Shown here in pieces: positions 3,072-38,789 of a stretch of DNA of 52,269 nt. The notes under the pieces are model-generated. The model was not told the DNA's origin. It searched no databases and saw only the letters and a program-made list of their open reading frames with translations. The stretch comes from Deltaproteobacteria bacterium (lineage in GTDB: Bacteria; Myxococcota_A; Polyangia; Polyangiales; Houyiibacteriaceae), in contig JAXMNT010000053.1 in assembly GCA_034670305.1 (NCBI GenBank), forward strand, positions 1-52,269. Direction: 5' to 3'. How positions within the stretch are numbered: the stretch's first letter is position 1; each line of letters opens with the position of its first letter. The translations under genes were made by a program, and so were the position numbers.

Positions 3072-5342
3072 TCAGGTGCGTCGGCGTCTGCGCATGAGGA
3101 AGATCAGCAACCAGATGAAGAAGAAGGGGGCGAAGAGCGACGCCACCCACCACCAGTCCTTCTCGACCTGGAACCCATCCCACGAGAGAAACGCGACGAT
3201 GGTCTCGAACACACCGGCCACGGCGACGAAGAAGAGTGCGCTCTCCATGAAGACGTCCGCGCGTTCGCGGTGTTTGGAGTCGTCGCGGGCTTCGAGCTGC
3301 GCGAGCTGGCGCATCTGGTCCTGGATCTCGCCGTATGAGCGCGGCAGGTGCATCGCATCGACCAGGCGCTCGGACACCTTTCGGGCGCGGCCGGTGCCGA
3401 TCTCGAGGTCGTAGTAGCGGGTCTGGAACGCGAGCACGTCCCGGCGCAGTTGGCCGGTGCGTTGCTGGCTGCGCTTCTTCGAGCGCAGCAGATCCGAGAG
3501 CCGCATCCGGTAGTCGCGCAGCGCCTCTCGAACGAACGCGAGGTAGAAGAGCACCTCGAGGTACCCGTCCTCTTCGCCGGAACCCGCTCCGACCGCGCGG
3601 ACCAAGAGCGAGCGGTGGTTGAAGAGCACGAGCTCGTCGTGGGTGACGGGCATCTCGTCGACGTCCACGTCGCCGAGGCCGCGGACGAGCCCGTCGAGCC
3701 GTGCAGGATCCGAGTTGTGCGGCCCGAGTCGGATGCGGGAGAGCGCGTAGGCCGGCGCGCCGTGTTTGGCGACCGCCTCCTGCATGCCCGCGAGCAGCTG
3801 TTCGAGCGTGGCGCCTTCGGCGGCTTCGATGTGCAGCAGTTCGAGGCCGCCGCGCGCTTCGGGCGGGAAGTCTCTGGCCTCGCGCCGAGCCACGACCGCG
3901 GGTGAGGTCAGCTTCTCTTCGGCCGACGGCGGCGCGCGGCACGATTCATAGAACGGCGCGAGTCGGTCGTCGATGCCGACGGGACACTTCATGGGCGACC
4001 AGGTGCCCTTCAAGACCGACGCGGCGTCGCCCGCTTCGTCGAGGTCCGCGGTCCACATCAAGGTCACGGTGCCGCTCGCCAAGGGCACGTGCCAGAACCG
4101 CCCACCGCACGCGATCGCCAGCACGTCGTCGTACTCCAGGTGGGTGCAGGTCGCGGGCGCGTCGATGATGGTGAAGTCGTGGCCGCGCCCGTCGTACCAA
4201 GGGTCGCCGTTGTTGCAGGTGCCATCGTCCCACCGCGGGGAAGGCGGCCGTTCGTCGCCATCGACCGCGCGCACTTCGCACTCGCGGCGCTCGAGCGCGA
4301 ATCCGAGCCCGCGCAGCGAAGGCGCGACGCCGTGTTCGTCCGACCAGGTGGGATCGAGTGAGAGAATCACCCGCCCCCATAGCCGAGGTGACTCGCGGTC
4401 CGCCTCGGTGGGGTAGGGACAGATGTAGTAGGGGAACCCGGAGGCGCGTACCCAGTACTTGTTGAGTTTGCTGCGCGGCGGCTCGGGTGAGATGAACGTG
4501 GGCACCCGCACTTCCGCGAGTTGGGAGACGCCGAGCCGCCCGGTGCCGCGCGCCGGCAGCGAGACTTCCGTGCGATGCGCGGCCTCGTAGTCGTCGGCGA
4601 ACCGTTCCGGCTCCTCGTCGAGCAGCGCACGCACGTCCTCGAACTCGGGACGCTTCGACCAGTGGGTCGCAGGGTGGTCCTCGTGGTCGGGATGAAATGC
4701 CGAGGGACCCCTCAACCCTTGGAGGTCCTGCAGCACGCCCTCCACCAGCATCAGTCCACGCATCAGCCCCGCCAGCGAGCGCTCGTGCGGTGTGCCTTGC
4801 GAGGGCAGGTTCTGGATCGCGAGCTGAGCGATGTGCGGCGCGAAGAAGGTCTCGCGCCGGCCGAGACGCAGCTCGTACCGGCCCTGGTCCACTTCGGTCA
4901 CGTACCGGGCGAGGGACGCGGCGGCGACGGGGACATCGCCGGTCTCGATCAGCTGGCGCACGAGGTAGCTGCTGACGACCCCATCGAAGTCCGGGTTGAA
5001 GTGGGTGACGAGGGTGAGTGTGATCTTCGCGCCCGAGAGGTCTTCGCCGGCGGCCGCCCGCTCGAGCGCGGGTCCGAGCAGGTGTACATAGACCAGCTCG
5101 CGGTGTTGCAGGATGAGCTCCGCGGTGCTGCTCGGGCGGGCTCCGTCGCCGTGGTGGTCGATGATGCCTGCCCCGAGGCCGCCCCCGACGTCGAGGTAGA
5201 TCACCCCGGGGGTCTCGGCGGCGCGGGTTCCGGGCGGCACGAACCGGTGTCGCCAGTCGATCTCGATGCCGAGCGCCTGTGCGCCGAGATGGCGCGCATG
5301 GTCCGCGGGGAGGTCCGCGGGAAGGGTGCCGTCGGCGGTCAC
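3072..5342 (-). CDS. DHH/MYG1-like phosphoesterase (permuted motif order) fused to a CorA-like helical + 2TM domain
   Basis: LDVGG...IIDHH followed by LVTHFNPDFDG; DPWYDGRGHDFTIIDAP; C-terminal helical stretch (FQTRYYDLEIG...) then two TM helices and an RRRRR tail. Confidence 0.7.
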   Translation of the reverse strand: MTADGTLPADLPADHARHLGAQALGIEIDWRHRFVPPGTRAAETPGVIYLDVGGGLGAGIIDHHGDGARPSSTAELILQHRELVYVHLLGPALERAAAGEDLSGAKITLTLVTHFNPDFDGVVSSYLVRQLIETGDVPVAAASLARYVTEVDQGRYELRLGRRETFFAPHIAQLAIQNLPSQGTPHERSLAGLMRGLMLVEGVLQDLQGLRGPSAFHPDHEDHPATHWSKRPEFEDVRALLDEEPERFADDYEAAHRTEVSLPARGTGRLGVSQLAEVRVPTFISPEPPRSKLNKYWVRASGFPYYICPYPTEADRESPRLWGRVILSLDPTWSDEHGVAPSLRGLGFALERRECEVRAVDGDERPPSPRWDDGTCNNGDPWYDGRGHDFTIIDAPATCTHLEYDDVLAIACGGRFWHVPLASGTVTLMWTADLDEAGDAASVLKGTWSPMKCPVGIDDRLAPFYESCRAPPSAEEKLTSPAVVARREARDFPPEARGGLELLHIEAAEGATLEQLLAGMQEAVAKHGAPAYALSRIRLGPHNSDPARLDGLVRGLGDVDVDEMPVTHDELVLFNHRSLLVRAVGAGSGEEDGYLEVLFYLAFVREALRDYRMRLSDLLRSKKRSQQRTGQLRRDVLAFQTRYYDLEIGTGRARKVSERLVDAMHLPRSYGEIQDQMRQLAQLEARDDSKHRERADVFMESALFFVAVAGVFETIVAFLSWDGFQVEKDWWWVASLFAPFFFIWLLIFLMRRRRRT

Positions 5343-5464
5343 GGCCGCGACTCTACACGGCTCGCCCGCTCGGAGGTATGGTCGCGGGGCCGAGATGCGG
5401 CGAAGCCGTCCGCTTGGCGGGAAGTTCCGGGGGAGAAACCTGGAACGTGTACGGAAGAGAGCTG

Positions 5465-7894
5465 ATGGAAGAGTCCCTGCGTTCCGAGATCATGGAAGCC
5501 TTGCTGGCCGACGAAGACGTCGACGAGCTGGTGTCGAACTTGGTGGATGCCGCCTGCGAGAGCGACGAAGCCATCGCGGCGGTGCTGAACGGCGAGAAAC
5601 GGGAGCCCCGCAAACCGAGCGCGCGCGTCGGGGAACCGCCCGGCGCCTACGTCGAAGAGATCTCCGTGAGTGGATTCCGCGGCGTCGGGCCGAGGGTGAA
5701 TCTCAAGCTCGAGCCCGGTCCGGGGCTCACCGTGATCTTCGGACGCAACGGTTCCGGCAAGTCGAGTTTCTCCGAAGGGCTCGAGACCCTGCTCACCGGC
5801 AGCTGCAGCCGGTTCATCGGGCGGCGCAGCAAGCTCTGGGAGAAGGGCTGGCGCAACCTTCACAACTCGGACAAGGCGCGGGTCGAGGCGAAACTCACCA
5901 TCGAAGGCCAACAGCCGCTGCACATCGTGCGCAGCTGGAAGAAGGACGCCGACCTCGAAGAGTCGCAGGTCGACGCCCGCTATGCCGACAAGACCGAGGT
6001 CACCCTCGAGTCGCTCGGGTTCCCCCAGGCGCTCGCGGAGTTCCGGCCGTTCTTGAGTCACCCGGAACTTGGTGCGCTCGTCGAAGAACCTTCGAAGGCC
6101 CACGACCTACTGAACCAGGTGCTCAGCTTGGACGAAGTGGTCGCCGCGATCGCGCGACTCACGAAGCAGCGCAAGGAACTCAGCTCCACCAAACGCTCGC
6201 TGAACGCGGAGCGCAAGCAGCTGCGCGATGCCGCTGAGGAACTCGAAGACGAACGCGCCGGCAAGTGCGCGAAGCTGCTCGCGAAGACCAAGCCGGATCT
6301 CGACAAACTCGAAGGCATCGTACTCGGCACGCAGGACGACGAAGCAGAGACGCGGCTCAAGAACCTCGGCCGGGTCACGAAGATCGCGATGCCGACGAAC
6401 GAGGAGTTCGAAGCGGCAAAGACCGCGCTGGTGGAGTCGAAGACTGCGTACGAGGCCGCGAGCACCGACGCGGCGGAGTCGCACGCGTCGCTGATCGAAG
6501 TGCTCACCGCCGCCAAGACGCACCTCGAACAACACGCCGAAGAGTGCCCGGTCTGCGAACGCCCGATGGACGCCGCGAAGATCACCGCGGTGGACGAACG
6601 CCTCGCCTCCGCGAAGGAAGCCTCGACCCGGTTCCGGGAGGCCAAGCGCGGCGTGCGCCGAGCCCGCGACGCGGCGGAGACGTTGTGTGGACGGCTCCCC
6701 CAGAAGGAACTCGAGCTCGCGTTCACCCTCGAACTCATCGAGGACCCGGCGCCGCTTCTGGCGTACGCCAAAGAGAAGGTCGAGGCGCACGACGAGCTCC
6801 TGAAGAAGCTGGAAGAACTTCCCAAGCGTGCGCGCCCGATCGTCGACGCATCGGCGGTGGCTGCCCGGGAAGCGGCGGAGAAGATCGAATCCGTCTTCCG
6901 CCCGTTCGCCACGACGGTCGCCGCGTACATCTCTCGCGCAAAGACGTTTGAGCCCCGGCTTCCGCACCTGAAGCCACTCGACTCCGCGGAGAAGTGGCTC
7001 GACGCCCGCCGCGAGATCCTGCGCGACGCCCGGTTCGATCCGATCGTCGACCGCGCGAAGGAGATCTGGGCGATGTTGAGCGCCCAGAGTTTCGTCTCGC
7101 TCGACGACATCTCGCTCGCGGGAAAGAAGAACCAGCGGCGCGTCGAGTTCTCTGCCCACGTGGACAACAACGAAGCGGAGGCGCTCAGCGTCATGTCGCA
7201 GGGCGAGCTCAACGCGTTGGCCCTGAGCATCTTCATTCCGCGCATGTGCCACGCGAGCAGCCCGTTCCGCTTCCTGGTCATCGACGACCCGGTGCAGGCG
7301 ATGGACCCGCACAAGGTGGACGGTCTCGCGCGGGTGCTCGACGAAGTCGCGCGGACCCGCCAGGTCATCGTGCTGACCCACGACGGCCGGCTCGTGAGCG
7401 CCATCCGGCGCCTGCAGATCAACGCGACGGTGCATCAGGTCACGCGCCGGCCCGAGAGCGTGGTCGACGTGCGGGTCACGCACGAGGCGGTCACGCAGCT
7501 GATCGACGACGCCTGGCAGGTGCTCGGCAGCGAGTCGGAACTCGGCGAAGACGTCTGTGCGCGCGTCGTTCCGGCGTTCTGCCGTGCGGCCATCGACGCT
7601 GCATGTGAAGAGGCCTTTCGGCGTCGTCGGCTGAAGCGCGGCGACGAACACGAGGAGGTGGAGAAGGTACTCGCGAAGTCGCGAACCACCCACGCGAAGG
7701 CCGCGCTCGCGATGTTCGACGACACCAAACACACCGGTGATGTGAAGGCAGAGCTGACGAAGGAACTCTCCGAAGCCACCACCACCGCGTACATCGGCGT
7801 GCTGCGCGCAGCGCACGGCTCCTACGAAGGCGACCTGCGGGCGCTCATCGGCGAGACGAAGAAGCTCACGAAGTTCCTGCGCGGGCGCGCTTGA
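5465..7894 (+). CDS. Rad50/SbcC/RloC-like coiled-coil ABC ATPase with zinc hook and helical (HEPN-like) C-terminal extension
   Basis: Walker A GRNGSGKSS, coiled coil with CPVC hook, signature MSQGE, Walker B FLVIDDPVQAMD, H-loop LTHD, then an extension of about 140 aa; ATG 5465 follows a purine-rich GGAAGAGA. Confidence 0.88.
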   Translation: MEESLRSEIMEALLADEDVDELVSNLVDAACESDEAIAAVLNGEKREPRKPSARVGEPPGAYVEEISVSGFRGVGPRVNLKLEPGPGLTVIFGRNGSGKSSFSEGLETLLTGSCSRFIGRRSKLWEKGWRNLHNSDKARVEAKLTIEGQQPLHIVRSWKKDADLEESQVDARYADKTEVTLESLGFPQALAEFRPFLSHPELGALVEEPSKAHDLLNQVLSLDEVVAAIARLTKQRKELSSTKRSLNAERKQLRDAAEELEDERAGKCAKLLAKTKPDLDKLEGIVLGTQDDEAETRLKNLGRVTKIAMPTNEEFEAAKTALVESKTAYEAASTDAAESHASLIEVLTAAKTHLEQHAEECPVCERPMDAAKITAVDERLASAKEASTRFREAKRGVRRARDAAETLCGRLPQKELELAFTLELIEDPAPLLAYAKEKVEAHDELLKKLEELPKRARPIVDASAVAAREAAEKIESVFRPFATTVAAYISRAKTFEPRLPHLKPLDSAEKWLDARREILRDARFDPIVDRAKEIWAMLSAQSFVSLDDISLAGKKNQRRVEFSAHVDNNEAEALSVMSQGELNALALSIFIPRMCHASSPFRFLVIDDPVQAMDPHKVDGLARVLDEVARTRQVIVLTHDGRLVSAIRRLQINATVHQVTRRPESVVDVRVTHEAVTQLIDDAWQVLGSESELGEDVCARVVPAFCRAAIDAACEEAFRRRRLKRGDEHEEVEKVLAKSRTTHAKAALAMFDDTKHTGDVKAELTKELSEATTTAYIGVLRAAHGSYEGDLRALIGETKKLTKFLRGRA

Positions 7895-8286
7895 TGGGGG
7901 CCACGGAGATCACGGCCACCCAGCTGCTCGCGAACGCGGACGCGGTGGTGTCGGCCGGAGATGCGACGTTGCGGGGGGTGTGGCCGCGGGCCGCAGCGGC
8001 CCTCACGCGACAGGCGCTCGAGACGCACGCGCGCACGCTCTTGTCGAAGGCGGGGGCGCGGGTCGAGGACGTGCGCTTCGGGGCGCTGATGCTCGCCACC
8101 CAAGCGGTGATGCACCCAACCGATGCTCGGGAACTCTCCCAGCTCTGGTCTCGTCTGAGCGAGTGTCTGCACGACACCGAACTGGGCATGGCGCTCGACA
8201 TTCCGGTGGCGGTTGCGCGCGCCCGCGCGCTGATCACGAACCCACGCGCGGTCGAAGCGATCGCGGATCCAGCGGACGACGAGTGA
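7894..8286 (+). CDS. small HEPN-like protein
   Basis: TGATG overlap with the ATPase stop; WPRAAAALTRQALE helix and R-x5-H (RLSECLH) motif. Confidence 0.65.
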   Translation: MGATEITATQLLANADAVVSAGDATLRGVWPRAAAALTRQALETHARTLLSKAGARVEDVRFGALMLATQAVMHPTDARELSQLWSRLSECLHDTELGMALDIPVAVARARALITNPRAVEAIADPADDE

Positions 8287-8696
8287 GGCCGTTTCACCTC
8301 GCGCTCCCGGTGCATTCGCTGGAGCAAGCGCGTCGCTTCTACGGCGGGCTGCTCGGCTGCGCCGAGGGACGCAGTGCCGACCGCTGGGTGGACTTCGACT
8401 TCTTCGGACACCAACTCTCGCTTCACCTCGCCGACACAGAAGAGACCACCGCGCGCAACGAGGTCGACGGCGACGAAGTACCGGCTCGGCACTTCGGGCT
8501 CGTGCTCGAATGGGGCGCGTGGGAGGCACTCGCCGATCGCCTCACCCAAGCGAAGGTGACGTTCCGGATCGCGCCGCGTGTCCGCTTCCAGGGCCAACCC
8601 GGCGAACAAGGAACATTCTTTCTGGACGATCCTTCAGGCAACGCGCTCGAGATGAAGGCGTTTCGCGATCTGCGCGCGATGTTCGCGACCGAGTAG
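8283..8696 (+). CDS. VOC/glyoxalase family protein
   Basis: PFHLALPV...ARRFYG.LLGC.EGRS...WVDFDFFGHQ...DPSGNALEMK; GTGA overlap with the previous gene. Confidence 0.92.
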   Translation: MRPFHLALPVHSLEQARRFYGGLLGCAEGRSADRWVDFDFFGHQLSLHLADTEETTARNEVDGDEVPARHFGLVLEWGAWEALADRLTQAKVTFRIAPRVRFQGQPGEQGTFFLDDPSGNALEMKAFRDLRAMFATE

Positions 8697-8797
8697 TCCG
8701 AAGTCGTTCTGGTCGAAGCGGCCGCGTAAGACGACGCGCTTGCCGCGGAACGATCCAGAACGCCGGACGCCTCTCGACCGAGTTGCGGAGCTCTTCG

Positions 8798-9742
8798 GTG
8801 GACAGCGCCGCAGCGGTCTTCCACACCGCGCGTGTGGTTGATCCCGACCGACGCCGCGGCCTGCACGGTGCGCTCTTCGGAGTCGCCGCCTACGGCGCGT
8901 GGGGCGTCATCCCCATCTTCTGGAAAGCGCTCGCCCACGTGGACGTGGTGCAGATCGCGGCCCACCGGGTGGTCTGGGGCTGTCTGACCTTCGCGCTCGT
9001 GTGCGCGCTGCGCGGACAGCTGGGCGAACTCCGCGCGGCGCTGAAGGATCGACGATTGGTCGGACGGCTCGCGGTCACCGCGACCATGCTCGCGACCAAC
9101 TGGGTCATCTTCATCTATGCGATCGCGTCCAACCAGGTCGTCGAGGCGAGCCTTGGGTACTTCATCAACCCGCTGGTCTCCGTCGCACTCGGCCGCATCT
9201 TTTTGCGCGAACGGATCTCGAGACCCCAGATGGCCGCGGTAGCGCTGGCGGCGCTCGGGGTGGTGGCCCTGACGCTCAGCATGGGCGGCGTGCCCTGGCT
9301 CGCCCTGGTGCTCGCGTTCTCCTTCGGCGGCTACGGGCTGCTCCGCAAGACGGCGCGCGCCAACGCCCTCCCAGGGTCGACCGTGGAGACGTTGCTCATG
9401 CTGCCCATCGGGCTCGGCATGCTGGTCTACTTCGAGTCGACTGGCGGTGGCGCGTTCCACGGACAAGACGTGGGATGGCTCATCGCGACCGGGCCGATCA
9501 CCGCGCTGCCCCTCTGGTGGTTCGCGAACGCGGCGCGCCGGCTGCGTCTCGCGACCTTGGGGTTTCTCCAGTACCTCGCGCCGACGGGTCAGTTCCTGCT
9601 TGCGGTGTTCGTCTTCCACGAACCGCTCGCGGCCGAACGGCTCGTGGGGTTCGGGTTCATCTGGTTCGCGCTCGCGCTCTACAGCGGGGACGCGTACCGC
9701 CGCCGGGGCGTTGTCGGCGAGGCTCCTACCACTGACCCGTGA
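8798..9742 (+). CDS. rarD: EamA family transporter RarD
   Basis: About 10 TM helices; AHRVVW, EASLGYFINPL, FGGYGLLRK, LGFLQYLAPT motifs; GTG start after GGAG (start approximate). Confidence 0.9.
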   Translation: MDSAAAVFHTARVVDPDRRRGLHGALFGVAAYGAWGVIPIFWKALAHVDVVQIAAHRVVWGCLTFALVCALRGQLGELRAALKDRRLVGRLAVTATMLATNWVIFIYAIASNQVVEASLGYFINPLVSVALGRIFLRERISRPQMAAVALAALGVVALTLSMGGVPWLALVLAFSFGGYGLLRKTARANALPGSTVETLLMLPIGLGMLVYFESTGGGAFHGQDVGWLIATGPITALPLWWFANAARRLRLATLGFLQYLAPTGQFLLAVFVFHEPLAAERLVGFGFIWFALALYSGDAYRRRGVVGEAPTTDP

Positions 9743-9932
9743 GGTAGGCGGCGAGGAACATGCCGCCGATGCCCACCACGATCAGTGGAAGCACCACGCA
9801 GCCCATGATGAAGTTCATCCGGCTCTTGGTGGGCTCGTCCCAGTTCTGCTGGGCCTTGTGGCTCGCCTTGCGGTAGGTCCGGTCCGCGTCGCGTCGCTGA
9901 CGGTCCTGTCGTTGCTGCCGCCAATCGCTCAT
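9726..9932 (-). CDS. small single-TM hypothetical protein
   Basis: 68 aa with a basic N-terminus and a C-terminal hydrophobic helix. Confidence 0.55.
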   Translation of the reverse strand: MSDWRQQRQDRQRRDADRTYRKASHKAQQNWDEPTKSRMNFIMGCVVLPLIVVGIGGMFLAAYLTGQW

Positions 9933-10044
9933 CGGTGGTTGCCCAGCCGCGATCCCATTCCATTCAAGTCTTCGTTCATGGGCCCCCGGTTCTGGAGTCT
10001 GCCCCGGAACCGCCGGATCGGGAAGCGCCGCTCCGAAACGACGA

Positions 10045-10075
10045 CGGGCCCGACACAACGCGTGTGCCGGGCCCG
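10045..10075 (-). terminator. GC-rich hairpin downstream of can
   Basis: cgggcccgacaca-N5-tgtgccgggcccg imperfect stem; weak U tract. Confidence 0.4.
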
Positions 10076-10098
10076 CCCTCACTGACTTTGTGTCGGAC

Positions 10099-10734
10099 CT
10101 AGCCGGGGCTCGCCATCTGGTACGCGGCCGGAAGCTGTTTCGGGGAACTCACGTTCATGTCGAGATCCTTGATCTTCCCGTCTTCGAGCCCGTAGATCCA
10201 CCCGTGGACCGAGACGTCCTGGCCGCGGTGCCAGGCATCCTGGATGATGGTCGTGTGCGCCAGGTTGGCCACCTGCTCCTGAACGTTCAACTCGCACATC
10301 CGGGTGCCACGGAGCTCGGGGGCCAGTCCTTCGAGCTCCTTCTGATGGAAACGCTGTACATCGCGGATGTGTCGCAGCCAGTTGTCGATCAGCCCGAATG
10401 GCTGGGACTGCATCGACGCGAGCACCCCGCCGCAGCCGTAGTGACCGCACACGATCACGTCCCTGACCTTGAGGACCTCGACGGCGTACTGAACCACCGA
10501 GAGGCAGTTGAGGTCGGTGTGGTTGACGAGGTTTGCGACGTTGCGGTGGACGAAGATCTCACCGGGCTCCACCCCGCAGATCACGTTCGCGGGGACGCGG
10601 CTGTCGGCGCAACCGATCCAGAGGATCTTGGGGGATTGCTGGGCGGTGAGACGCGGAAAGAACGTCGGGTCGTCCTTCGCACGTTGTTCGGCCCAGGCGG
10701 CGTTGTTCTTCAGAACTTGAGCGAGGTCGGTCAT
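10099..10734 (-). CDS. can: beta-class carbonic anhydrase
   Basis: WIGCADSRVP, FVHRNVAN, CGHYGCGG zinc-ligand motifs. Confidence 0.95.
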   Translation of the reverse strand: MTDLAQVLKNNAAWAEQRAKDDPTFFPRLTAQQSPKILWIGCADSRVPANVICGVEPGEIFVHRNVANLVNHTDLNCLSVVQYAVEVLKVRDVIVCGHYGCGGVLASMQSQPFGLIDNWLRHIRDVQRFHQKELEGLAPELRGTRMCELNVQEQVANLAHTTIIQDAWHRGQDVSVHGWIYGLEDGKIKDLDMNVSSPKQLPAAYQMASPG

Positions 10735-17349: not shown

Positions 17350-18717
17350 TCAGTCCCGTCGGGACCGTCCGCCACCACCGCCGCCACCGCTGCGACCACC
17401 GCCGCCGCCGCCGCCGCTGCGACCACCACCGCCGCCACCGCCGCCACGCCCGCGCCCACCACCGCCGCCGCGTCCACGCCCACCGCCGCCGCCGCCACGT
17501 CGCGGGCCGCCGCGTTTGTGGCTGGGCTTTCGGCCCCCGCCACCACCACCGCGTTTCGACTCGAGGTCGGTCATCGGGGGCAGGGGCTGACTGGGCGGGA
17601 AGGGATGGTCTTCGATGCGATCCAGGTGGGTTCCGAGCAGTCGTTCGATGTCGATGAGGAACGGACGCTCTTCGCTCTCGACGAACGACAGCGCGATGCC
17701 GGATGCGCCCGCGCGGGCCGTGCGGCCGATGCGGTGTACGTAGGTCTCCGCCACGTTCGGGATGTCGAAGTTGATCACGTGCGTGATGCCTTCGACGTCG
17801 ATGCCGCGCGCCGCGATGTCGGTCGCGACGAGGACGTTCAGGGTGCCGGCACGAAATCCGTCGAGGGCCCGCGTGCGCGCCCCCTGCGACTTGTTGCCGT
17901 GGATGGCGGCGGCTTGGATGCCGGCTTTGTCGAGCTGCTGCACGACGCGGTTGGCGCCGTGTTTGGTCCGCGTGAAGACAAGCGTGTGTTCGACGGCGTC
18001 CTTCTTGAGCAGTTCGACGAGCAGCCGCCGCTTGTCCGCCTTGTCGACGAAGTACACGTGCTGCGAGACCTTCTCGGCCGCGGACGAGATCGGGGCGACG
18101 GCCACCGACACCGGATCGTGGAGGAGGTCCTCCGCGAGCGAACGGATCGCTTGAGGCATCGTGGCGGAGAAGAAGAGCGTCTGACGCTTCTTCGGCAGCT
18201 TCATGATCACGCGACGCACGTCCGGCAGGAACCCCATGTCCAGCATCCGGTCGGCTTCGTCGAGCACGAAGATCTCGATGTCGCGCAGATCGACGAACCC
18301 TCGGTTCATGAGATCGAGCAGCCGTCCGGGCGTGGCCACCAGCGCGTCGATGCCCCGCTTGAGTTCCTTGATCTGCGGCTTCTCGTTCACGCCGCCGAAG
18401 ATGACCGCGTGCCAGAGATCGAGGTGTTTGCCGTAGGTTCGGAAGCTCTCGCTGATCTGTGCGGCGAGCTCCCGCGTCGGGGTCAGCACGAGCGCGCGAA
18501 GTTTGGCTTCTTCACCCGAAGAGGCGTCGAGACGATGCAGAAGCGGGAGCCCGAAACCTGCCGTCTTGCCCGTGCCGGTCTGGGCGCAGCCGAGCACATC
18601 GCGCCCTTCGAGGGCGGGCGGAATCGCCTGCTCCTGGATCGGGGTCGGTTCGGTGTACCCGGTCTCTTGGACGGCGCGGAGGATTTCGGGGTGGAGCTTG
18701 AGTTCGTCGAATCGCAC
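17350..18717 (-). CDS. rhlE: DEAD-box RNA helicase (RhlE-like) with Gly/Arg-rich tail
   Basis: [47 protein letters not shown] start chosen at 18717. Confidence 0.93.
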
Positions 18718-18812
18718 GCCCCTACGTCGCAGACTTCCGGATCTGCGCAACCAATCTTCGAACCCCACCGACCGAAACGGCCAGGCTCGAAACCGGGACC
18801 CCCGAACGCAGC

Positions 18813-18845
18813 GAAGGCGAGAAGGGCGGTTGCCCTCTCGCCTTC
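18813..18845 (-). terminator. hairpin between the RRM gene and rhlE
   Basis: gaaggcgagaagggc-ggtt-gccctctcgccttc stem; no clear U tract. Confidence 0.45.
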
Positions 18846-18866
18846 CTCATCCGGTCGTTCGGTCGT

Positions 18867-19331
18867 TCAGCGGCGTTCGGTGGCCACGTTGACGACGATG
18901 TTGCGTCCGTCGAGTTCGCTGTTGTCGAGCGCTGCGATCGCCTTGGGTGCGTCCTTGCGATCCGCCATGGTCACGAACCCGAATCCGCGCGAGCGGCCGG
19001 TGTCGCGGTCCTTGATCACGGCGGCGTCCGAGACTTCACCGAACTCTTCGAACGCGGCCCGGAGACCGGCGTTGTCGGTCGACTGGCTCAATCCACCCAC
19101 GAACAACTTGGTCGGCACCGGCGCTGCGGAGCGACTTGCCACCGCGCCACCGGCTCCGCCGATCTCTTGCATCGTCTCGGCGATCGATCGCACGTCGCCC
19201 TGGATGTCATCGGCGGTGACGACCTGGATCTCTTGGGGACCCATGTCGCGTTTGTCCGAACGGCGGGCCGCCTTCTCGCGCTTCTTCTGGGCCTTGCGGG
19301 TTTCGCGTGCGCGTTTGTCGGGCGTGGTCAT
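18867..19331 (-). CDS. RRM RNA-binding protein with basic N-terminal extension
   Basis: KLFVGGLS (RNP2), RSRGFGFVTM (RNP1); GGAGGT RBS. Confidence 0.93.
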   Translation of the reverse strand: MTTPDKRARETRKAQKKREKAARRSDKRDMGPQEIQVVTADDIQGDVRSIAETMQEIGGAGGAVASRSAAPVPTKLFVGGLSQSTDNAGLRAAFEEFGEVSDAAVIKDRDTGRSRGFGFVTMADRKDAPKAIAALDNSELDGRNIVVNVATERR

Positions 19332-19518
19332 CGTCGACCTCCACAAAGTGCGAAGGCAGGGGAGAGCGGGGATGGGTGATCAATCAAGTTGCGAGTTCCT
19401 CCAGGAGGTGAACAGGTCGGCTGCCACAGAAGCGTGGAGCGTCTCTATAGCCTTCCATGCGCCTTCGCGCGAGTGGGCGGTGGTTTGCACAGACCGAACC
19501 GTCGCCGAAGAGAGCAGG

Positions 19519-20367
19519 CTAGCCCTCGTCGATGAGCTTCACTCCGTCGCCCGTCAACTCGACGCGCCGGAGTTTGTAGAGCCCGCCGAGCGCCTTCTTG
19601 AACGCCTTCTTGCTCATCGCGAGCCGCGCGTAGATCGCTTCGGGCGCACTCTTGTCGTGCAGCGGCAGAAAGCCTCCCTCTTCGACGATCGCCGCGAGCA
19701 GCGTCTTCTGGGCGTCGTCGATCGCTTCTCGACCGGTGCGCACGAGACTGATGTCGAGCTTGTTGTCCTCGCGGACGAACTTCAGATACCCCTCGAGCCG
19801 CTGTCCGACGACGAGCGCCTGGAACGACTCGTTGCGGTACACGAGCCCCGCGTGTGCGCCGTCGACGACCACGAGCGCCCCGAGGTCGTTGTGGTCGAAC
19901 ACCAGCAGCTCGACCTTCTTGCCGACGGTGAGGTGCTGCACCTCGTAGTCGAGGTAGGGGCCGAGCAAACTCGCGGCCTTCATGCGGCCGTCGCGTTGGT
20001 CGCGCACCACCGCGAACACGAGCTCGTCTCCGACGTCGAGCATCCGGGACTGCTCGTTCGTTGGGGCGAACAGATCTTTGTCGAGCCCCCAGTCCAGGAA
20101 CGCGCCGTGTTCGTTTCGGTCCACCACCCGCAGCAGCGCGAAGTCGCCTGCGGTGGCTTTCGGGACCTGGGTGGTGGCCACCGGGCGGTCTTCGGAGTCC
20201 GTGTAGACGAACACCCGAACCTCGTCGCCGAGCTCCACGTCGACGGGCTCGAACTTGCGCGGGAGCAAGACCTGGTGGTCGGGATCTTCGCCGCCGAGGT
20301 ACAGCCCGAAGTCGGTCTGGGCCCGCACGACGAGGGTCTGAAACACCCCGATCTCGATCTCTGCCAT
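19519..20367 (-). CDS. CvfB/YitL family S1-domain RNA-binding protein
   Basis: VFVYTDSEDRPVAT, GAFLDWGLDKDL, LHDKSAPEAI...MSKKAFKKALGGLYK. Confidence 0.92.
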   Translation of the reverse strand: MAEIEIGVFQTLVVRAQTDFGLYLGGEDPDHQVLLPRKFEPVDVELGDEVRVFVYTDSEDRPVATTQVPKATAGDFALLRVVDRNEHGAFLDWGLDKDLFAPTNEQSRMLDVGDELVFAVVRDQRDGRMKAASLLGPYLDYEVQHLTVGKKVELLVFDHNDLGALVVVDGAHAGLVYRNESFQALVVGQRLEGYLKFVREDNKLDISLVRTGREAIDDAQKTLLAAIVEEGGFLPLHDKSAPEAIYARLAMSKKAFKKALGGLYKLRRVELTGDGVKLIDEG

Positions 20368-20607
20368 GGCGCTTCGAATAGCCCACCCGGACACCGAACG
20401 CGACCCGGGATGGCGGGATCGATGGCGGCGACCGCCCCAGGGGCAACGGCCACGAATCCAACCGTGGTCGCTGCGCGGGTAACGGCCAGGCGTCGAGCCC
20501 GACTGGACCGGACAGCGCGGCCGAGTTCGGTCGTGGACATGAGCACGAAGTCCAGTGGGGGGAACCGTTCTGGTTCATCGCTTGGACGAGAACCAAGGAG
20601 TCAGACC

Positions 20608-21385: not shown

Positions 21386-21458
21386 GTCCCCATCGTCTAG
21401 TGGCCCAGGACCCTGGCTTTTCACGCCAGTAACGCGGGTTCAAACCCCGCTGGGGACG
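21386..21458 (+). tRNA. tRNA-Glu (TTC)
   Basis: GTCCCCA/TGGGGAC acceptor stem, CTGGC-TTTTCAC-GCCAG anticodon arm, GGTTCAAA T loop; CCA not encoded. Confidence 0.96.
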
Positions 21459-21500
21459 CCCAGTCCGAGTCGGAAGGTCCACCGCCTCGGAAACCCAAAC

Positions 21501-21534
21501 GAAACCGCCTCTGGCTCACGCCAGGGGCGTTTTC
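21501..21534 (+). terminator. intrinsic terminator after the tRNAs
   Basis: cgcctctggc-tcac-gccaggggcg stem followed by tttt. Confidence 0.7.
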
Positions 21535-21681
21535 ATTGGAGCGGAGCCGCACGGCGCCCGATGGTGCTGGTGGCGTTCGGCACCTTCCGAGGTAGCTGAA
21601 GCTCCTCTTGAGGGACGGTGTTCGGGCCATCGAGGAATCGTGTGGCTCCCCTCCCTGGGGTCGGTGCGCTACGCTCTCGGC

Positions 21682-23013
21682 ATGACGGAGCGGAGGTCGG
21701 GGGTGAGCCTCTCCGCGTGGCGCCAGGCGACGATGCTCGCTTGGCTGGTCGCGTGGACAGCGCTGGCGGGATGCGACGGCGACACGGCCGCCGAGGACGC
21801 GGGTGCTGGGGACGCCAGCGGCTTGGACGCCAGCGTCTTGGACGCCAGCGTCATGGATGGGGCCGGCGCAGACGGGGAGGCCGCCGACGGCGGAGAGCCC
21901 ATGGACGCTGGACCAGATGCTGCAGCGAGCGACGCGGCGCCCGACTCGGGCGACGCTGGGCCGCCGCCCCTCCGTATTCTGTCGGTCGCAGCGGGCTTCG
22001 ACTTCAACTGTGCACTCCGCTCCGACGGGGTGGCGTTGTGCTGGGGGAACAACAGCCAGGCCCAGCTCGGGGATGGGTCCGGGGGGATCCCGCGACCGGA
22101 GCCGCTTCCGGTCGTCGGGGGGCACGCGTTCGCGTCCCTCGCCGCCGGCGACGACCATGTCTGTGGGGTCACGCGGTCTGGCGACCTGTACTGCTGGGGC
22201 GCCAACTTCGCCAGGCAGGTGGGCGACCCCGCCGAGGGGCTCCCGCATGGGACGCCATTCTTCGTGCGCGGCGACGTCAGCACTGTGGGCGCTGGCGGAC
22301 GGCACACCTGCCTGATTGACCGCGTGGGCGCCGTTGGATGTTTCGGGGAGGGCGATCGTTCGCAGCTGACCGGCGACCCGGTCAGGGCGACCGCAACGGT
22401 GCAGGCCGTGACGTTGCCCGCCACGGCCAGCGCCATCGCGCTCGGCCGCTGGCACAGCTGCGCGCTCGTGATGAACAGCCTCCACTGCTGGGGTGAGAAC
22501 GCGGACCTACAGCTCGCGCGGGCGGACACGACGGACGGCTCGACCGGCCCCGTGACCGGACTCGAGGCGGTCAACGCGTTCGGGCTGGGGTACGCACATT
22601 CCTGCGCCCGCCACGGGGCGGGCACCGCGTGCTGGGGCGCTGGTGGCGTCGGCCAGCTCGGCGACGGGGAGACGTTGAGCCGGTCGACTCCGGCTCCGGT
22701 GTCACTTGCCGACGTCGTCCAGGTGGACGGTGGGGAACAACACACCTGCGCGCGTCGCGACAGCGGAGAGATCTGGTGCTGGGGCTGGGACCGCTACCAG
22801 CAGATCGGCGGCGGCGGGGACCGATCGGAGCCAGGGCGGATCCTGCTCGACGGCCCTGCGCGCGACCTCGCGGTGGGTGGCCAGCACACCTGCGCGGTGC
22901 TCGACGACGGTCGGGTGTTCTGCTGGGGCCGGAACATCCAGGGGCAGCTCGGCACGTCGGAGGCAGGCTCCGAGAGCGCGGCGCCGGTCGAGGTCGAGGG
23001 CCTTCTCCCGTAG
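21682..23013 (+). CDS. RCC1-repeat beta-propeller lipoprotein
   Basis: Lipobox LAGC, DAG-rich linker, repeated G..HTCA......CWG.N..GQLG. Confidence 0.92.
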   Translation: MTERRSGVSLSAWRQATMLAWLVAWTALAGCDGDTAAEDAGAGDASGLDASVLDASVMDGAGADGEAADGGEPMDAGPDAAASDAAPDSGDAGPPPLRILSVAAGFDFNCALRSDGVALCWGNNSQAQLGDGSGGIPRPEPLPVVGGHAFASLAAGDDHVCGVTRSGDLYCWGANFARQVGDPAEGLPHGTPFFVRGDVSTVGAGGRHTCLIDRVGAVGCFGEGDRSQLTGDPVRATATVQAVTLPATASAIALGRWHSCALVMNSLHCWGENADLQLARADTTDGSTGPVTGLEAVNAFGLGYAHSCARHGAGTACWGAGGVGQLGDGETLSRSTPAPVSLADVVQVDGGEQHTCARRDSGEIWCWGWDRYQQIGGGGDRSEPGRILLDGPARDLAVGGQHTCAVLDDGRVFCWGRNIQGQLGTSEAGSESAAPVEVEGLLP

Positions 23014-35143: not shown

Positions 35144-35824
35144 CTAACGAAGCCCTTCGAGGATGCGTTGGGTGAACGAGGTGCGCAGGTAGAACCCACG
35201 CGGCCCTGTCCACTGGTAGCCGCCGTCTCCATCGGGTGCGCGCATGCGCACGCTTCCGTCGGCCGCCTTGGGCCGCACCTGCAGCGCTTCGCCGAGGTGT
35301 CCGGTGATCGCGTCCACTTCCCCGGACACCACCAGGTCGGCGATTCGATCCCAATCGCTCCGGAGGGTCGCGTGTTCTGCTTCGCTCGGCGACCAGAGCA
35401 CCGCGCTCCCGACCCGGCGATCCGCGAGCGCCAGGTGCGGGTCGGCCTGAACGGGGACCCACATCACCCGCGCGAGTTTGCGCGCGACCGACGAGTCTTC
35501 GAAGTCCGTGTCCGGTACTTCGAGCAGGTTGATGGTGGTGACGAAGGTGGACTCCTTCGGTTTGCCTTTCACGACGGGCAGGGTCTTGAGCTCCACTTGG
35601 ATCTCGAGGAAGTCCGGCTCGTCCTTGCTGCCGGCGCTGGCGCCGAGCACCGCTTCCATCAGTTGGCCCACGAGGCCTTTGGCGCGGTGGCTGGTGGGCG
35701 GCACGAACACACCGACGGTCGCCGCGAGCTCGCCGATGGTGCGGCCACCGATCGCGCGCGCCCGCGCTCGAAGTTCTTCTTCGGACGCGGGCGGAGCGAC
35801 CTTCGGAGCTTCAGTCCGCGGCAC
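35144..35824 (-). CDS. mutH: MutH/Sau3AI family endonuclease
   Basis: KGLVGQLME.VLGASAGSK.EPDF...VELKTLPV...PKESTFV; LQVRPKAA; RGFYLR..FT; start approximate. Confidence 0.88.
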   Translation of the reverse strand: MPRTEAPKVAPPASEEELRARARAIGGRTIGELAATVGVFVPPTSHRAKGLVGQLMEAVLGASAGSKDEPDFLEIQVELKTLPVVKGKPKESTFVTTINLLEVPDTDFEDSSVARKLARVMWVPVQADPHLALADRRVGSAVLWSPSEAEHATLRSDWDRIADLVVSGEVDAITGHLGEALQVRPKAADGSVRMRAPDGDGGYQWTGPRGFYLRTSFTQRILEGLR

Positions 35825-38084: not shown

Positions 38085-38189
38085 GGCTCGCTTTCGTGCA
38101 CGCGGAAAGCGCGCCGGGGAGACGGGAGAAAAGCGGGCGAGAGCCGTTCGGTCAAGGGCGATGACCCACGGGCATCCAGAAGAGAGGGA

Positions 38190-38516
38190 TCAGTCGGTGT
38201 CGCTCATGTCTCGAACCACGGCCTTGATGGCCTCGGTGTCTTGGTCGACCTGCTTCTTCAGTCGCGCAAGTTCCGCGTCGAGTGCCTTGGCATCCTTCTT
38301 CAGAGCCTTCTCTCGAGCACGCGTCCGTTGCTTTCGCGCTTTGGCGGCCCGCTTGGCTTCCCGTTTGGCCGCTCGGGCCGCAGCCCGTTGGGCGGAAGGG
38401 CTGGGCGGTGGCGCCGGGACGTCCGCTTCGTCCCGCAGCTTGTCCATGCCTTCACGGGCCGCTTCGCGCCCAATCTCGAGTCCGATGCCCGCCACGATCC
38501 ACTTCATCAATCCCAT
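38190..38516 (-). CDS. small coiled-coil hypothetical protein
   Basis: GGAGG RBS; 108 aa; Lys/Ala-rich, ending in LDAELARLKK. Confidence 0.7.
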   Translation of the reverse strand: MGLMKWIVAGIGLEIGREAAREGMDKLRDEADVPAPPPSPSAQRAAARAAKREAKRAAKARKQRTRAREKALKKDAKALDAELARLKKQVDQDTEAIKAVVRDMSDTD

Positions 38517-38761
38517 GTCCTGCCTCCGCCGTCTCACACAGGATACGCCGAAACTGCCCAAGAATTCGCTGATACATGTATCGTTCAGTGTTCGGTCGGT
38601 GGGGGGTGTAGACCCTGGCACAATTGCTCACTCGAGTCCGCAGCCACTCCAGTGGCCACCTGTGGGGACAATGAACCCCACGGGCGTGTCTGGTCCAGAT
38701 ACAAGCCTTTTGATCCGTGTTTTGTTGGGAAATGTCGGTGGCGGCCCAGTCCAATCGATGG

Positions 38762-38777
38762 CGGCACGCTGGTTGCA
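38762..38777 (+). promoter_or_regulatory. sigma-54 promoter
   Basis: CGGCAC-GCTGG-TTGCA. Confidence 0.7.
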
Positions 38778-38789
38778 CAGTACCCCGGC

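Follow-up and report, generated by a model that had tools for sequence, protein, structure and literature searches.

Two separable anti-phage-type modules, an NrN-CorA fusion and a zinc-hook ATPase with a HEPN-fold partner, probably lie head to head in a Polyangiales-type genome

A type III-B CorA effector working with an NrN phosphodiesterase has been described in Bacteroides fragilis, and nrn-corA fusions are reported from Aliarcobacter butzleri (the available text of Chi et al. 2023, PMC10600005). In that text, as in the other work consulted, CorA and NrN have so far been handled as type III CRISPR accessory proteins, and a literature search found no paper that places CorA/NrN fusions outside CRISPR loci. 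The RloC anticodon nuclease, known from Geobacillus kaustophilus, is presented in the available sections of two reports (PMC2610378, PMC3458546) as the product of a single gene, with the anticodon nuclease triad given in the former as Arg-X3-Glu-X36-52-His. ABC-HEPN fusions of the PrrC/RloC/APECO1_4465 and ERFG_01251 families, occasionally found in CRISPR-Cas neighborhoods, are covered in the available part of Anantharaman et al. 2013 (PMC3710099).

The locus described here spans positions 3072-8286 of the window (the whole stretch of 52,269 nucleotides that was analyzed) and consists of an NrN-CorA fusion gene on the minus strand (3072..5342; GTG start, 756 aa, protein P0001) that is divergent from a pair of plus-strand genes encoding an ATPase and a small protein. 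The first-pass annotation placed a 122-bp gap between the divergent genes and a TGATG coupling within the pair, and both proved to be exact. Positions 5343..5464 separate the two starts: the reading frame of the ATPase is open from 5279, and the ATG preceded by a GGAAGAGAG-type ribosome-binding site is the one at 5465. The TGA stop codon of the ATPase (7892-7894) and the ATG of the small ORF (7894-7896) have an A in common, which confirms the one-base TGATG overlap (7892-7896). The small ORF (130 aa) terminates at 8286, and its plus-strand frame is favored by the GC content by codon position over an antisense ORF at 7866-8633. Beyond the coding starts, the 122-bp spacer shows no sequence conservation with the spacers of two related loci of the same layout, L001 and L002, so a regulatory element common to the three spacers was rejected. 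No cas genes were found in the window. The genes on its flanks resemble housekeeping ones (an FG-GAP protein, glyoxalase, EamA, carbonic anhydrase, and SulP) and PADLOC gave no matches for 13 further window ORFs, so that the locus lies outside any obvious defense island.

P0001 is a predicted fusion of a DHH/DHHA1 phosphoesterase from the NrN family of CRISPR-associated enzymes with a whole CorA-like module containing two transmembrane (TM) helices. In its AF2 model (mean pLDDT 87.1), residues 20-417 (4092..5285, minus strand) form the NrN-type DHH/DHHA1 phosphoesterase domain, in which VIA-align matched the two-domain fold of 8a8k (Z 10.3, 224 residues aligned, rmsd 3.9); the VIA-align wide search added PggH 7d62 (Z 9.6, 232 aligned, rmsd 5.2), NrN 9lq9 (Z 6.8, 135 aligned, rmsd 3.9), and RecJ-like chains (Z 7-9), the matches jointly covering residues 20-417. 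Foldseek searches with the full model ranked the CorA half alone, and the DHH half surfaced only in the VIA-align wide search. The Pfam DHH match is just 13.6 bits, under the cut-off. Across the locus, PDB sequence-profile searches with the profiles A1, A4, and A5 returned nothing under E 0.05. At the sequence level, the DHH domain aligns end to end with the products of stand-alone NrN-like genes located downstream of CRISPR-type CorA genes. The invariant residues of the NrN domain include D51, D62, H64, H114, D118, D120, D152, D380-R386, and H388. The DHH motif of the window protein is D62-H63-H64, with D62 and H64 invariant, and the motifs H114-x2-P-D-x-D120, D152, and DPWYDGRGxH are invariant across 30 members of the family (75 clusters at E<=1e-3) and in a set of 11 sequences that include CRISPR-linked ones.

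The CorA-like module (residues 420-756; 3075..4085, minus strand) is predicted to comprise a cytoplasmic alpha/beta domain, stalk helices, and two TM helices. Foldseek matched it to Thermotoga maritima CorA chains over ~320-400 columns (probability 0.85-0.99, E ~2e-3), with identities of ~10-14% in the structural alignments, and the PADLOC model of the CRISPR-type CorA (PDLC01174) recognized residues 598-753 with an E value of 5.7e-6 (1.4e-11 to 9.4e-5 among relatives). These fold searches and PADLOC matches bear out the initial call of a DHH-CorA fusion. Hydropathy analysis and a motif scan place the TM helices at approximately residues 697-722 and 730-752, with a basic tail after the second (3087..3254, minus strand), where the AF2 model has helices 666-719 and 726-755. 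The GMN motif is missing from the end of the first TM helix in all 30 family members examined (0/30); 28 of them lack G[MVI]N altogether, and in the other two it occurs elsewhere. The Pfam scan of P0001 at E<=1 included no CorA family.

The 809-aa product of the first plus-strand gene (5465..7894) was initially described as a Rad50/RloC-like zinc-hook ATPase, and this assignment stands: Pfam finds SMC_N (E 9.6e-17), AAA_23, and AAA_21, the best PDB matches of its profile are the SMC and Rad50 heads, and the CPVC of the hook is invariant. The Pfam family AAA_13 is a near miss (34.1 bits versus the gathering cut-off of 36). The top PADLOC match is LmuB (PDLC03859, E 8.9e-30) in two stretches, the best of which places residues 211-648 on model positions 172-593 of 611. 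In 26 sequences of this family, which numbers at least 226 clusters, the invariant positions include G93, N95, G96, K99, and S100 of the Walker A motif (F92-S100, GRNGSGKS; 5738..5764, plus strand), the ABC signature residues, and F603, D607, D608, P609, M613, and D614 of the Walker B/D-loop segment FLVIDDPVQAMD (7271..7306, plus strand). All four residues of the zinc hook C361-P-V-C364 (6545..6556, plus strand) are equally invariant in 26 family members, with the Pfam Rad50_zn_hook model giving a weak match (E 0.045).

The C-terminal helical domain of the ATPase (R707-x3-D711...H784; 7427..7891, plus strand) has invariant R and H residues and either E or D at the +4 position in 14 of 14 sequences. 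Comparison of this domain with the small-protein family by hhalign yielded a probability of 46% (E 2e-4). Its nearest ESM Atlas clusters include one (score 0.91) that bears the name [quoted passage not shown] and another (score 0.88) with AAA_13 in 29% of its members. Judging from the motif logic, the hhalign probability, and this language-model lead, the domain may be HEPN-like. PADLOC gave no matches at E<=1 in 22 sequences of ATPase C-terminal domains and small proteins.

The small protein (130 aa; 7894..8286, plus strand), translationally coupled to the ATPase, is predicted to be a free-standing HEPN-fold protein, in agreement with the earlier description of it as HEPN-like. Its AF2 model (pLDDT 85.4) aligned in VIA-align with 2hsb (Z 13.3, 110 of 126 residues, rmsd 3.0) and HEPN structures made up most of the top 17 matches, at Z scores that helical bundles can also reach by chance. 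Foldseek returned no match at E<=0.001, with HEPN entries among the top ones at probabilities of 0.8-0.97. In 81 sequences of this family (1186 representatives at E<=1e-3), R39, E43, L88, and H93 are invariant, the first two being located on helix 2. The RxxxxxH motif noted in the first-pass annotation does exist in the window protein as R87-x5-H93; the family, however, keeps H93 and not R87, its consensus being W-x-A-L-S-x-A-C-H. Thus, the test for an Rx4-6H motif failed at the family level, and RxxxxxH was rejected as the HEPN catalytic motif.

When the C-terminal domain of the ATPase and the small protein were modeled as a complex, the score was 0.50 versus 0.01 for the best control. Of 157 solved complexes, 116 reached that mark, as did 2 of 215 mismatched pairs; among those that reached it at 0.60 or below were only 18 of the solved complexes, along with both of the mismatched pairs that passed. 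The contacts agreed between the runs to at least 85%, and the pLDDT of the partner was at least 74. The modeling thus lends weak support to the binding of the two.

The ATPase (module A, together with the small protein) is encoded in 20 of the 401 Myxococcota genomes (5%), and the small-protein gene directly follows it in at least 14 of 18 loci, none of which share a conserved third gene. The pair is also found in Actinomycetota, on the Streptomyces plasmid pM92. PADLOC defense matches lie within three or four genes of the pair in 7 of the 18 loci and include cas3 (4 loci), two restriction-modification (RM) methyltransferases, and BrxHI/BrxD-like genes. Gene calling from GC3 is imperfect at high-GC loci, so the neighbor lists may miss or mis-start some genes. 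The ATPase and its small HEPN protein form an independent two-gene operon that is widespread.

The NrN-CorA fusion (module B) is a rarer, single-gene unit, present in 10 of the 401 genomes (2.5%), with no neighbor recurring in more than 3 of 42 loci; the plasmid search with P0001 gave no match. A scan of 45 proteins showed the NrN-like domain fused to TIR in 3 and to Ser/Thr kinases in 9. It is also encoded by a separate gene directly after a PADLOC-recognized CRISPR-type CorA gene in three loci (L041, L044, and L058), the last of which also contains a CARF-HEPN gene and RT-Cas1. The failure to find Cas10 in the window, as originally noted, extends to its genome (G000, 96% complete), in which TIGR02577 had no match and TIGR02578 had just a 17-bit fragment. 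Neither model detected Cas10 in the single-contig complete chromosome of a relative (G235) or in G242, although a divergent synthase could have been missed by these two models. With no cas genes in the window and no Cas10 found in the genome, a type III CRISPR context of the locus was rejected.

The NrN-CorA protein could nevertheless still work with a partner encoded at another place, either a type III CRISPR system or a different synthase of SAM-AMP or oligoadenylate, with the ATPase pair as a mere neighbor. Indeed, its NrN domain has invariant residues of the catalytic type, and Cmr2/Cas10 scores above the family cut-off on another contig in 2 of 5 other Myxococcota genomes with NrN-CorA (G191 and G332). 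The three genomes without detected Cas10 and the lack of a recurrent neighbor in the 42 loci argue against such a role, which we consider improbable.

Still less probable is a function outside defense, in which the ATPase pair would be a DNA repair or chromosome maintenance factor and NrN-CorA a nucleotide-regulated ion channel of ordinary physiology. The housekeeping-like genes around the locus would fit this explanation, as would the automatic GO term, double-strand break repair, borne by the plasmid copy of the ATPase. It agrees poorly with the sporadic distribution of the two units, with neighbors that include CRISPR-Cas, RM, BREX-like, Avs-like, PDC, and kinase genes, with the occurrence of the pair on plasmids, with the predicted HEPN fold of the small protein, and with a CorA-like part that lacks GMN and any Pfam CorA match. 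Both units have defense genes nearby in other genomes, which makes a defense role plausible for each.

Modules A and B adjoin in the window; among 148 related loci they do so in 2, namely, 2 of 68 loci from genomes and 0 of 80 from metagenomes. Only 2 of the 28 carriers among the 401 Myxococcota genomes have both modules, and all co-occurrences belong to one Polyangiales-type clade. The three loci have the same divergent three-gene layout with 65-74% amino acid identity, the flanking genes tested being different. The three proteins have diverged congruently (67/74/66% to L001 and 66/72/65% to L002), and the retention of the block between differing flanks is the look that would be expected of a functional or co-mobilized unit. 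The first-pass annotation proposed a single sensor/nuclease/effector module. Some co-occurrence was found, in the clade of the window itself; elsewhere, including all metagenomic loci, the units stay separate, and a single three-gene module is not generally supported. We favor, with a probability of about 0.6, the reading of the locus as a head-to-head arrangement of two separable anti-phage-type modules, with the adjacency being a trait of one Polyangiales-type clade and not of either family.

One system could still operate within that clade, with the ATPase/HEPN pair sensing the infection and NrN-CorA acting as its membrane effector, the two being linked either by contact between the proteins or by a small nucleotide that module A makes or releases. 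This alternative is unlikely but deserves to be taken seriously. The block with its ~100-122-bp divergent spacer persists between unrelated flanking genes, and three more metagenome pairs of relatives with 66-74% identity have longest contigs of equal length (430100, 42792, and 94085), which suggests that they share contigs. Lamassu systems use swappable effectors, and LmuB is the top PADLOC match of the ATPase. No Cas10 was found in the genome to serve module B, which comes without an identified signal source, so that the neighbor could supply one, a point that counts against the two-module reading. On the other hand, in all other clades examined either unit is conserved in the absence of its counterpart, the genes diverge and are not co-transcribed, the spacer lacks sequence conservation, and P0001 and the small protein match no LmuA and no LmuC model, respectively. 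Moreover, all co-occurrences come from related genomes and may represent a single evolutionary event.

The least probable of the explanations considered is a Cas10-independent circuit specific to this clade, in which the triggered ATPase/HEPN pair would free an RNA-derived product that gates the CorA-like channel, and NrN would destroy the product and reset the system; the NrN-CorA, NrN-TIR, and NrN-kinase fusions outside CRISPR would then be nucleotide-gated effectors with a non-Cas10 signal. Examples of such a product are an excised nucleotide and a short fragment with a 2',3'-cyclic phosphate, NrN being of the nanoRNase type.

Under the preferred reading of two separable modules, module A would be a variant of the RloC-type ABC-HEPN abortive infection enzyme with a free-standing HEPN paralog in the same operon. 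By analogy with RloC, as presented in the available parts of PMC2610378 and PMC3458546, the dimeric ATPase would act as a sensor of DNA (ends or damage), and hydrolysis of ATP would then permit the action of an RNase. This RNase would form from the C-terminal domain of the ATPase and the small HEPN protein and would stop translation. Module B would be a homolog of the SAM-AMP-gated CorA membrane effector fused to a signal-degrading NrN phosphodiesterase (compare the available text of PMC10600005). A small nucleotide bound by the cytoplasmic domain of P0001 would open or disrupt the membrane, and hydrolysis of this ligand by the DHH domain would reset the protein.

The abundance of the ATPase pair (the ATPase numbers at least 226 clusters and the small protein 1186 representatives), its frequent location by CRISPR-Cas, RM, or BREX-like genes, and the lack of a PADLOC 2.0 match for the small partner and the C-terminal domain make it a good candidate for an undescribed RloC-like abortive infection system. 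An RNase domain that is split or duplicated could clarify how RloC-type enzymes are switched on. For module B, this analysis adds a whole family of NrN-CorA fusions that lie apart from cas genes, in genomes without detected Cas10, and fusions of NrN to TIR and to kinases in the same situation. Its occurrence away from cas genes raises the testable question of which ligand gates it and what makes that ligand.

Among the known systems, Lamassu resembles this locus in its LmuB component, which matches the ATPase at E 8.9e-30. The Lamassu reading was rejected, however, given that neither P0001 nor the small protein matches an LmuA or LmuC model in PADLOC. To our knowledge, Lamassu is defined without a zinc hook or a C-terminal R...H domain. 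The likeness of P0001 to CRISPR CorA/NrN includes a DHH/DHHA1 domain from the sequence family of the NrN-like genes that adjoin CRISPR-type CorA, a two-TM C terminus recognized by the PADLOC CRISPR-CorA models, and the combination of a phosphodiesterase and a channel in one protein. It differs from these systems in its surroundings, as searches of the window and genome turned up neither Cas10 nor another cas gene. NrN precedes CorA in P0001, and corA precedes nrn in the CRISPR-linked loci of this analysis. Unlike CRISPR CorA, its CorA half is similar to canonical CorA over the entire fold: residues ~420-756 are predicted to fold like the full protomer of the Mg2+ channel from T. maritima. Unlike the canonical CorA metal ion transporter, it has neither GMN nor a Pfam CorA match.

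Compared with RloC as characterized in the available sections of PMC2610378 and PMC3458546, the ATPase has a similar length (~800 aa) and a collinear organization, with an ABC head, a coiled coil bearing the CxxC zinc hook, and a C-terminal R-x3-acidic...H domain. It differs in its R707-x3-[D/E]-x72-H784 spacing, which is outside the 36-52 range, and in scoring under the Pfam AAA_13 cut-off. The small protein, with R39-x3-E43-x49-H93, is encoded by a separate, conserved second gene, unlike the single-gene RloC. Like the families in the available part of Anantharaman et al. 2013 (PMC3710099), module A brings together an ABC ATPase and predicted HEPN-type RNase domains, and it has a CRISPR-Cas neighborhood in 4 of 18 loci.

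The three genes of the locus are all recovered as the first-pass annotation had described them: a 756-aa open reading frame (ORF) on the minus strand (3072-5342) is separated by a 122-bp divergent gap from an 809-aa ORF on the plus strand (ATG at 5465, end at 7894), which overlaps a 130-aa plus-strand ORF (7894-8286) in the sequence TGATG. For the small ORF, the GC content by codon position favors the plus frame. The genome that carries them (G000) is 7.9 Mb in size, with 67% GC and 96% completeness; contig C53 (52,269 bp) is the entire window, and its close relatives carry the labels Polyangiales or Myxococcota. The best-supported reading of this locus is that it consists of two separable defence-type modules, an NrN-CorA protein and an ATPase with a small HEPN-fold partner.

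Elsewhere in the window, a minus-strand run of RNA-handling genes (17350-20574) encodes a DEAD-box helicase, a CvfB-like S1 protein, and a protein with the RRM_1 domain, which is uncommon in bacteria. An RCC1-repeat protein (21433-23013) and a Cdc48-like double-AAA ATPase with CDC48_N (35811-38189) both belong to eukaryote-like families. An ORF of ~1100 aa (37737-41036) combines Amidase_2 with a C-terminal DPBB_1 (lytic transglycosylase-like) domain; its first half is unannotated.

The Pfam scan of the minus-strand gene product is near-blank, with DHH at 13.6 bits, under the cut-off. Residues 598-753 match the CRISPR-type CorA model of PADLOC (E value of 5.7e-6), and in the AlphaFold2 model (mean pLDDT 87.1, 30 homologues as input) the C-terminal half resembles complete Thermotoga maritima CorA protomers over ~320-400 columns (Foldseek probabilities of 0.85-0.99). 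There are two hydrophobic helices (~697-722 and 730-752) followed by a basic tail; the GMN motif is absent. In a structure search independent of Foldseek, residues 20-417 matched DHH/DHHA1 enzymes, including the PAP phosphatase 8a8k (Z score of 10.3, 224 residues aligned), PggH (7d62, Z 9.6), RecJ-type chains, NrnA, and a chain titled NrN (9lq9, Z 6.8). Stand-alone genes coding for 309-390 aa match the N-terminal domain from one end to the other and share every Asp/His motif with it. Four such genes (L026, L041, L044, and L058) are found immediately 3' of a gene from one neighbor cluster, which in the last three loci matches PADLOC CorA models; L058 additionally has CARF-HEPN and RT-Cas1, and a WYL gene is present in L041. 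The CorA-like and DHH matches, together with the motifs shared with NrN-like genes next to CorA, identify this protein as an NrN-CorA fusion.

The full-length family comprises 75 clusters (E ≤ 1e-3), just one of which has a precomputed Pfam domain, TIR_2. A domain scan of 45 NrN-like proteins from 68 genome loci revealed fusions to TIR_2 in three (L019:7935-9536, L020:2276-3862, and L043:2588-4330) and to Ser/Thr kinases in nine (L021, L022, L027, L029, L033, L035, L037, L045, and L047), the latter mostly from Planctomycetota and with the NrN-like domain on either side of the kinase; the remaining ones are joined to long unannotated regions or stand alone. These fusions suggest that the NrN-like DHH domain acts as a mobile unit, either regulatory or hydrolytic, that serves diverse effectors. 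Across the 42 loci with the long form (NrN-CorA length), no neighbor is common to more than 3. Several loci have defence-like neighbors, namely PDC-S37/Hhe-like and PDC-S11 (L010 and L014), mad8/HerA-like (L009), Avs2-like STAND (L005; weak in L004), and PD-T4-6-type kinases with NYN (L017). A transposase and an integrase are also found next to NrN-type genes, and the tested neighbors in L001, L002, L006, and L013 gave no PADLOC match. In L003, a 514-aa protein (6428-7972) with weak CRISPR-CorA matches (E value of 1e-5) is encoded directly upstream of, and co-directionally with, NrN-CorA (7995-10193), possibly placing two CorA-like proteins in tandem, with a Mutator-family transposase nearby. 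Proteins of ~1100 aa adjoin NrN-type genes in L004 (10268-13573), L014 (10295-13564), and L010 (10125-13649); in L004 and L014 their genes begin only a few bases from the stop codon of NrN-CorA, and those of L014 and L010 share a PDC-S11-like C-terminal region (E values of 3e-30 and 2e-28, respectively).

The 809-aa protein is a zinc-hook ABC ATPase that matches SMC_N (9.6e-17), AAA_23, and AAA_21 in Pfam, with AAA_13 falling narrowly short (34.1 bits against a cut-off of 36). Its top PADLOC match is LmuB (8.9e-30), followed by generic ABC ATPases, and its profile retrieves SMC and Rad50 heads from PDB. Across 26 family members there is no variation at the Walker A, signature, and Walker B residues, at C361-P-V-C364 midway along the coiled coil, or at R707 and H784, which lie within the last 160 residues. 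Fourteen C-terminal domains display the pattern R-x3-[E/D]-x72-H, with Glu in 10 and Asp in 4. A language-model look-up of this domain returned an [quoted passage not shown] cluster (score 0.91) and a cluster with AAA_13 in 29% of its members (0.88), which serve as leads only. The ABC head is preceded by a conserved acidic extension of ~60 aa (residues 1-60, window 5465-5640) with nearly invariant V27, A30, and L41, which the matched Rad50/SMC heads lack.

In the small-protein family (81 sequences), R39, E43, L88, and H93 are invariant, which yields the pattern R-x3-E-x49-H; R87 of the window protein is not conserved. The structural model of this protein (pLDDT 85.4) matches the HEPN structure 2hsb (Z 13.3, 110 residues aligned), and the best 17 structural matches are mostly HEPN proteins (HEPN toxins, sacsin, Csm6, LsoA, and HI0074); Foldseek alone returned nothing at E ≤ 0.001. 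In hhalign, the small protein matches the ATPase C-terminal domain (probability of 46%, E value of 2e-4) across the helix bearing the Arg and the acidic residue. Complex prediction for these two partners scored 0.50 versus 0.01 for the best control, weakly supporting a predicted association. In the calibration of this method, 116 of 157 solved complexes and 2 of 215 mismatched pairs passed the mark; of these, 18 of the solved complexes and both mismatches scored no higher than 0.60.

The ATPase family includes at least 226 clusters, named Actinomycetota among them, and the small-protein family has 1186 representatives (E ≤ 1e-3). The small-protein gene directly follows the ATPase gene in at least 14 of 18 fetched loci (11 detected with tblastn at E < 0.01, the other three through ORF clustering), and no other conserved gene accompanies the pair in these 18. 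PADLOC matches (E ≤ 1e-5) were found among the neighbors in seven loci and in none of the other 11. Four of them (L096, L105, L108, and L111) have cas3 within a few genes of the pair, accompanied by further type I cas genes or by CARF/WYL genes: a Cas3g/Cas8g/Cas5-6g set in L096, CARF genes in L105 and L108, and a WYL gene directly upstream in L111. The others have two restriction-modification methyltransferases (L094), BrxHI/BrxD-like genes (L107), and a weak TmtA match (L110). The Streptomyces plasmid pM92 also carries the pair, annotated solely as "AAA family ATPase" and "hypothetical protein," beside NB-ARC/TPR, AAA ATPase, and kinase genes.

The proposal that all three genes form one defence system has little general support. 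In tblastn searches around NrN-type genes, the ATPase and the small protein were found in 2 of 68 genome loci (L001 and L002, with 72-74% identity for the ATPase, 65-66% for the small protein, and the same divergent layout) and in none of 80 metagenome loci (17 with the long form). Among 401 Myxococcota genomes, 20 encode the ATPase and 10 an NrN-type protein, with both present only in G000 and G235, the latter apparently the same chromosome as L001. Neither L001 nor L002 has a match to the FG-GAP and glyoxalase proteins that flank the block in the window, and these two loci share no flank clusters; the block has therefore been kept or moved as a unit in these three genomes. A clade-restricted coupling of the two modules is the live alternative. 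All instances come from related genomes, the divergent spacer sequence is not conserved, and NrN-CorA and the ATPase pair are transcribed apart. Three further metagenomic pairs of relatives lie on contigs of equal size, which hints at more instances. Scans with TIGR02577 and TIGR02578 detected no Cas10 above the cut-off in G000, in the single-contig G235, or in G242; G191 and G332 carry Cmr2 on other contigs, and G351 a 36-bit fragment.

For the two separable modules, any mechanism would be drawn by analogy with RloC and the CRISPR-associated CorA/NrN. No report of NrN-CorA outside CRISPR loci was found among the papers listed for NrN/CorA/SAM-AMP and DHH/CorA/TIR conflict systems. By the definition in PMC2610378 and PMC3458546, RloC combines an ABC head with a coiled-coil/zinc-hook insert and the triad Arg-X3-Glu-X36-52-His, and a DNA-dependent ATPase activates its ACNase; PMC3710099 classes the PrrC/RloC nuclease domains as HEPN and lists further ABC-HEPN fusions. 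Given this definition and class, the ATPase and small-protein genes read as an RloC-like enzyme plus an extra, separately encoded HEPN paralogue. The ATPase shares with RloC, so defined, the ABC head and zinc-hook coiled coil but has a wider His spacing (x72 versus X36-52); the separate small protein has R-x3-E-x49-H. The NrN-CorA protein, in turn, resembles the nrn-corA fusions that Chi et al. (PMC10600005) report for type III-B loci of Aliarcobacter butzleri, with NrN and CorA in one chain.
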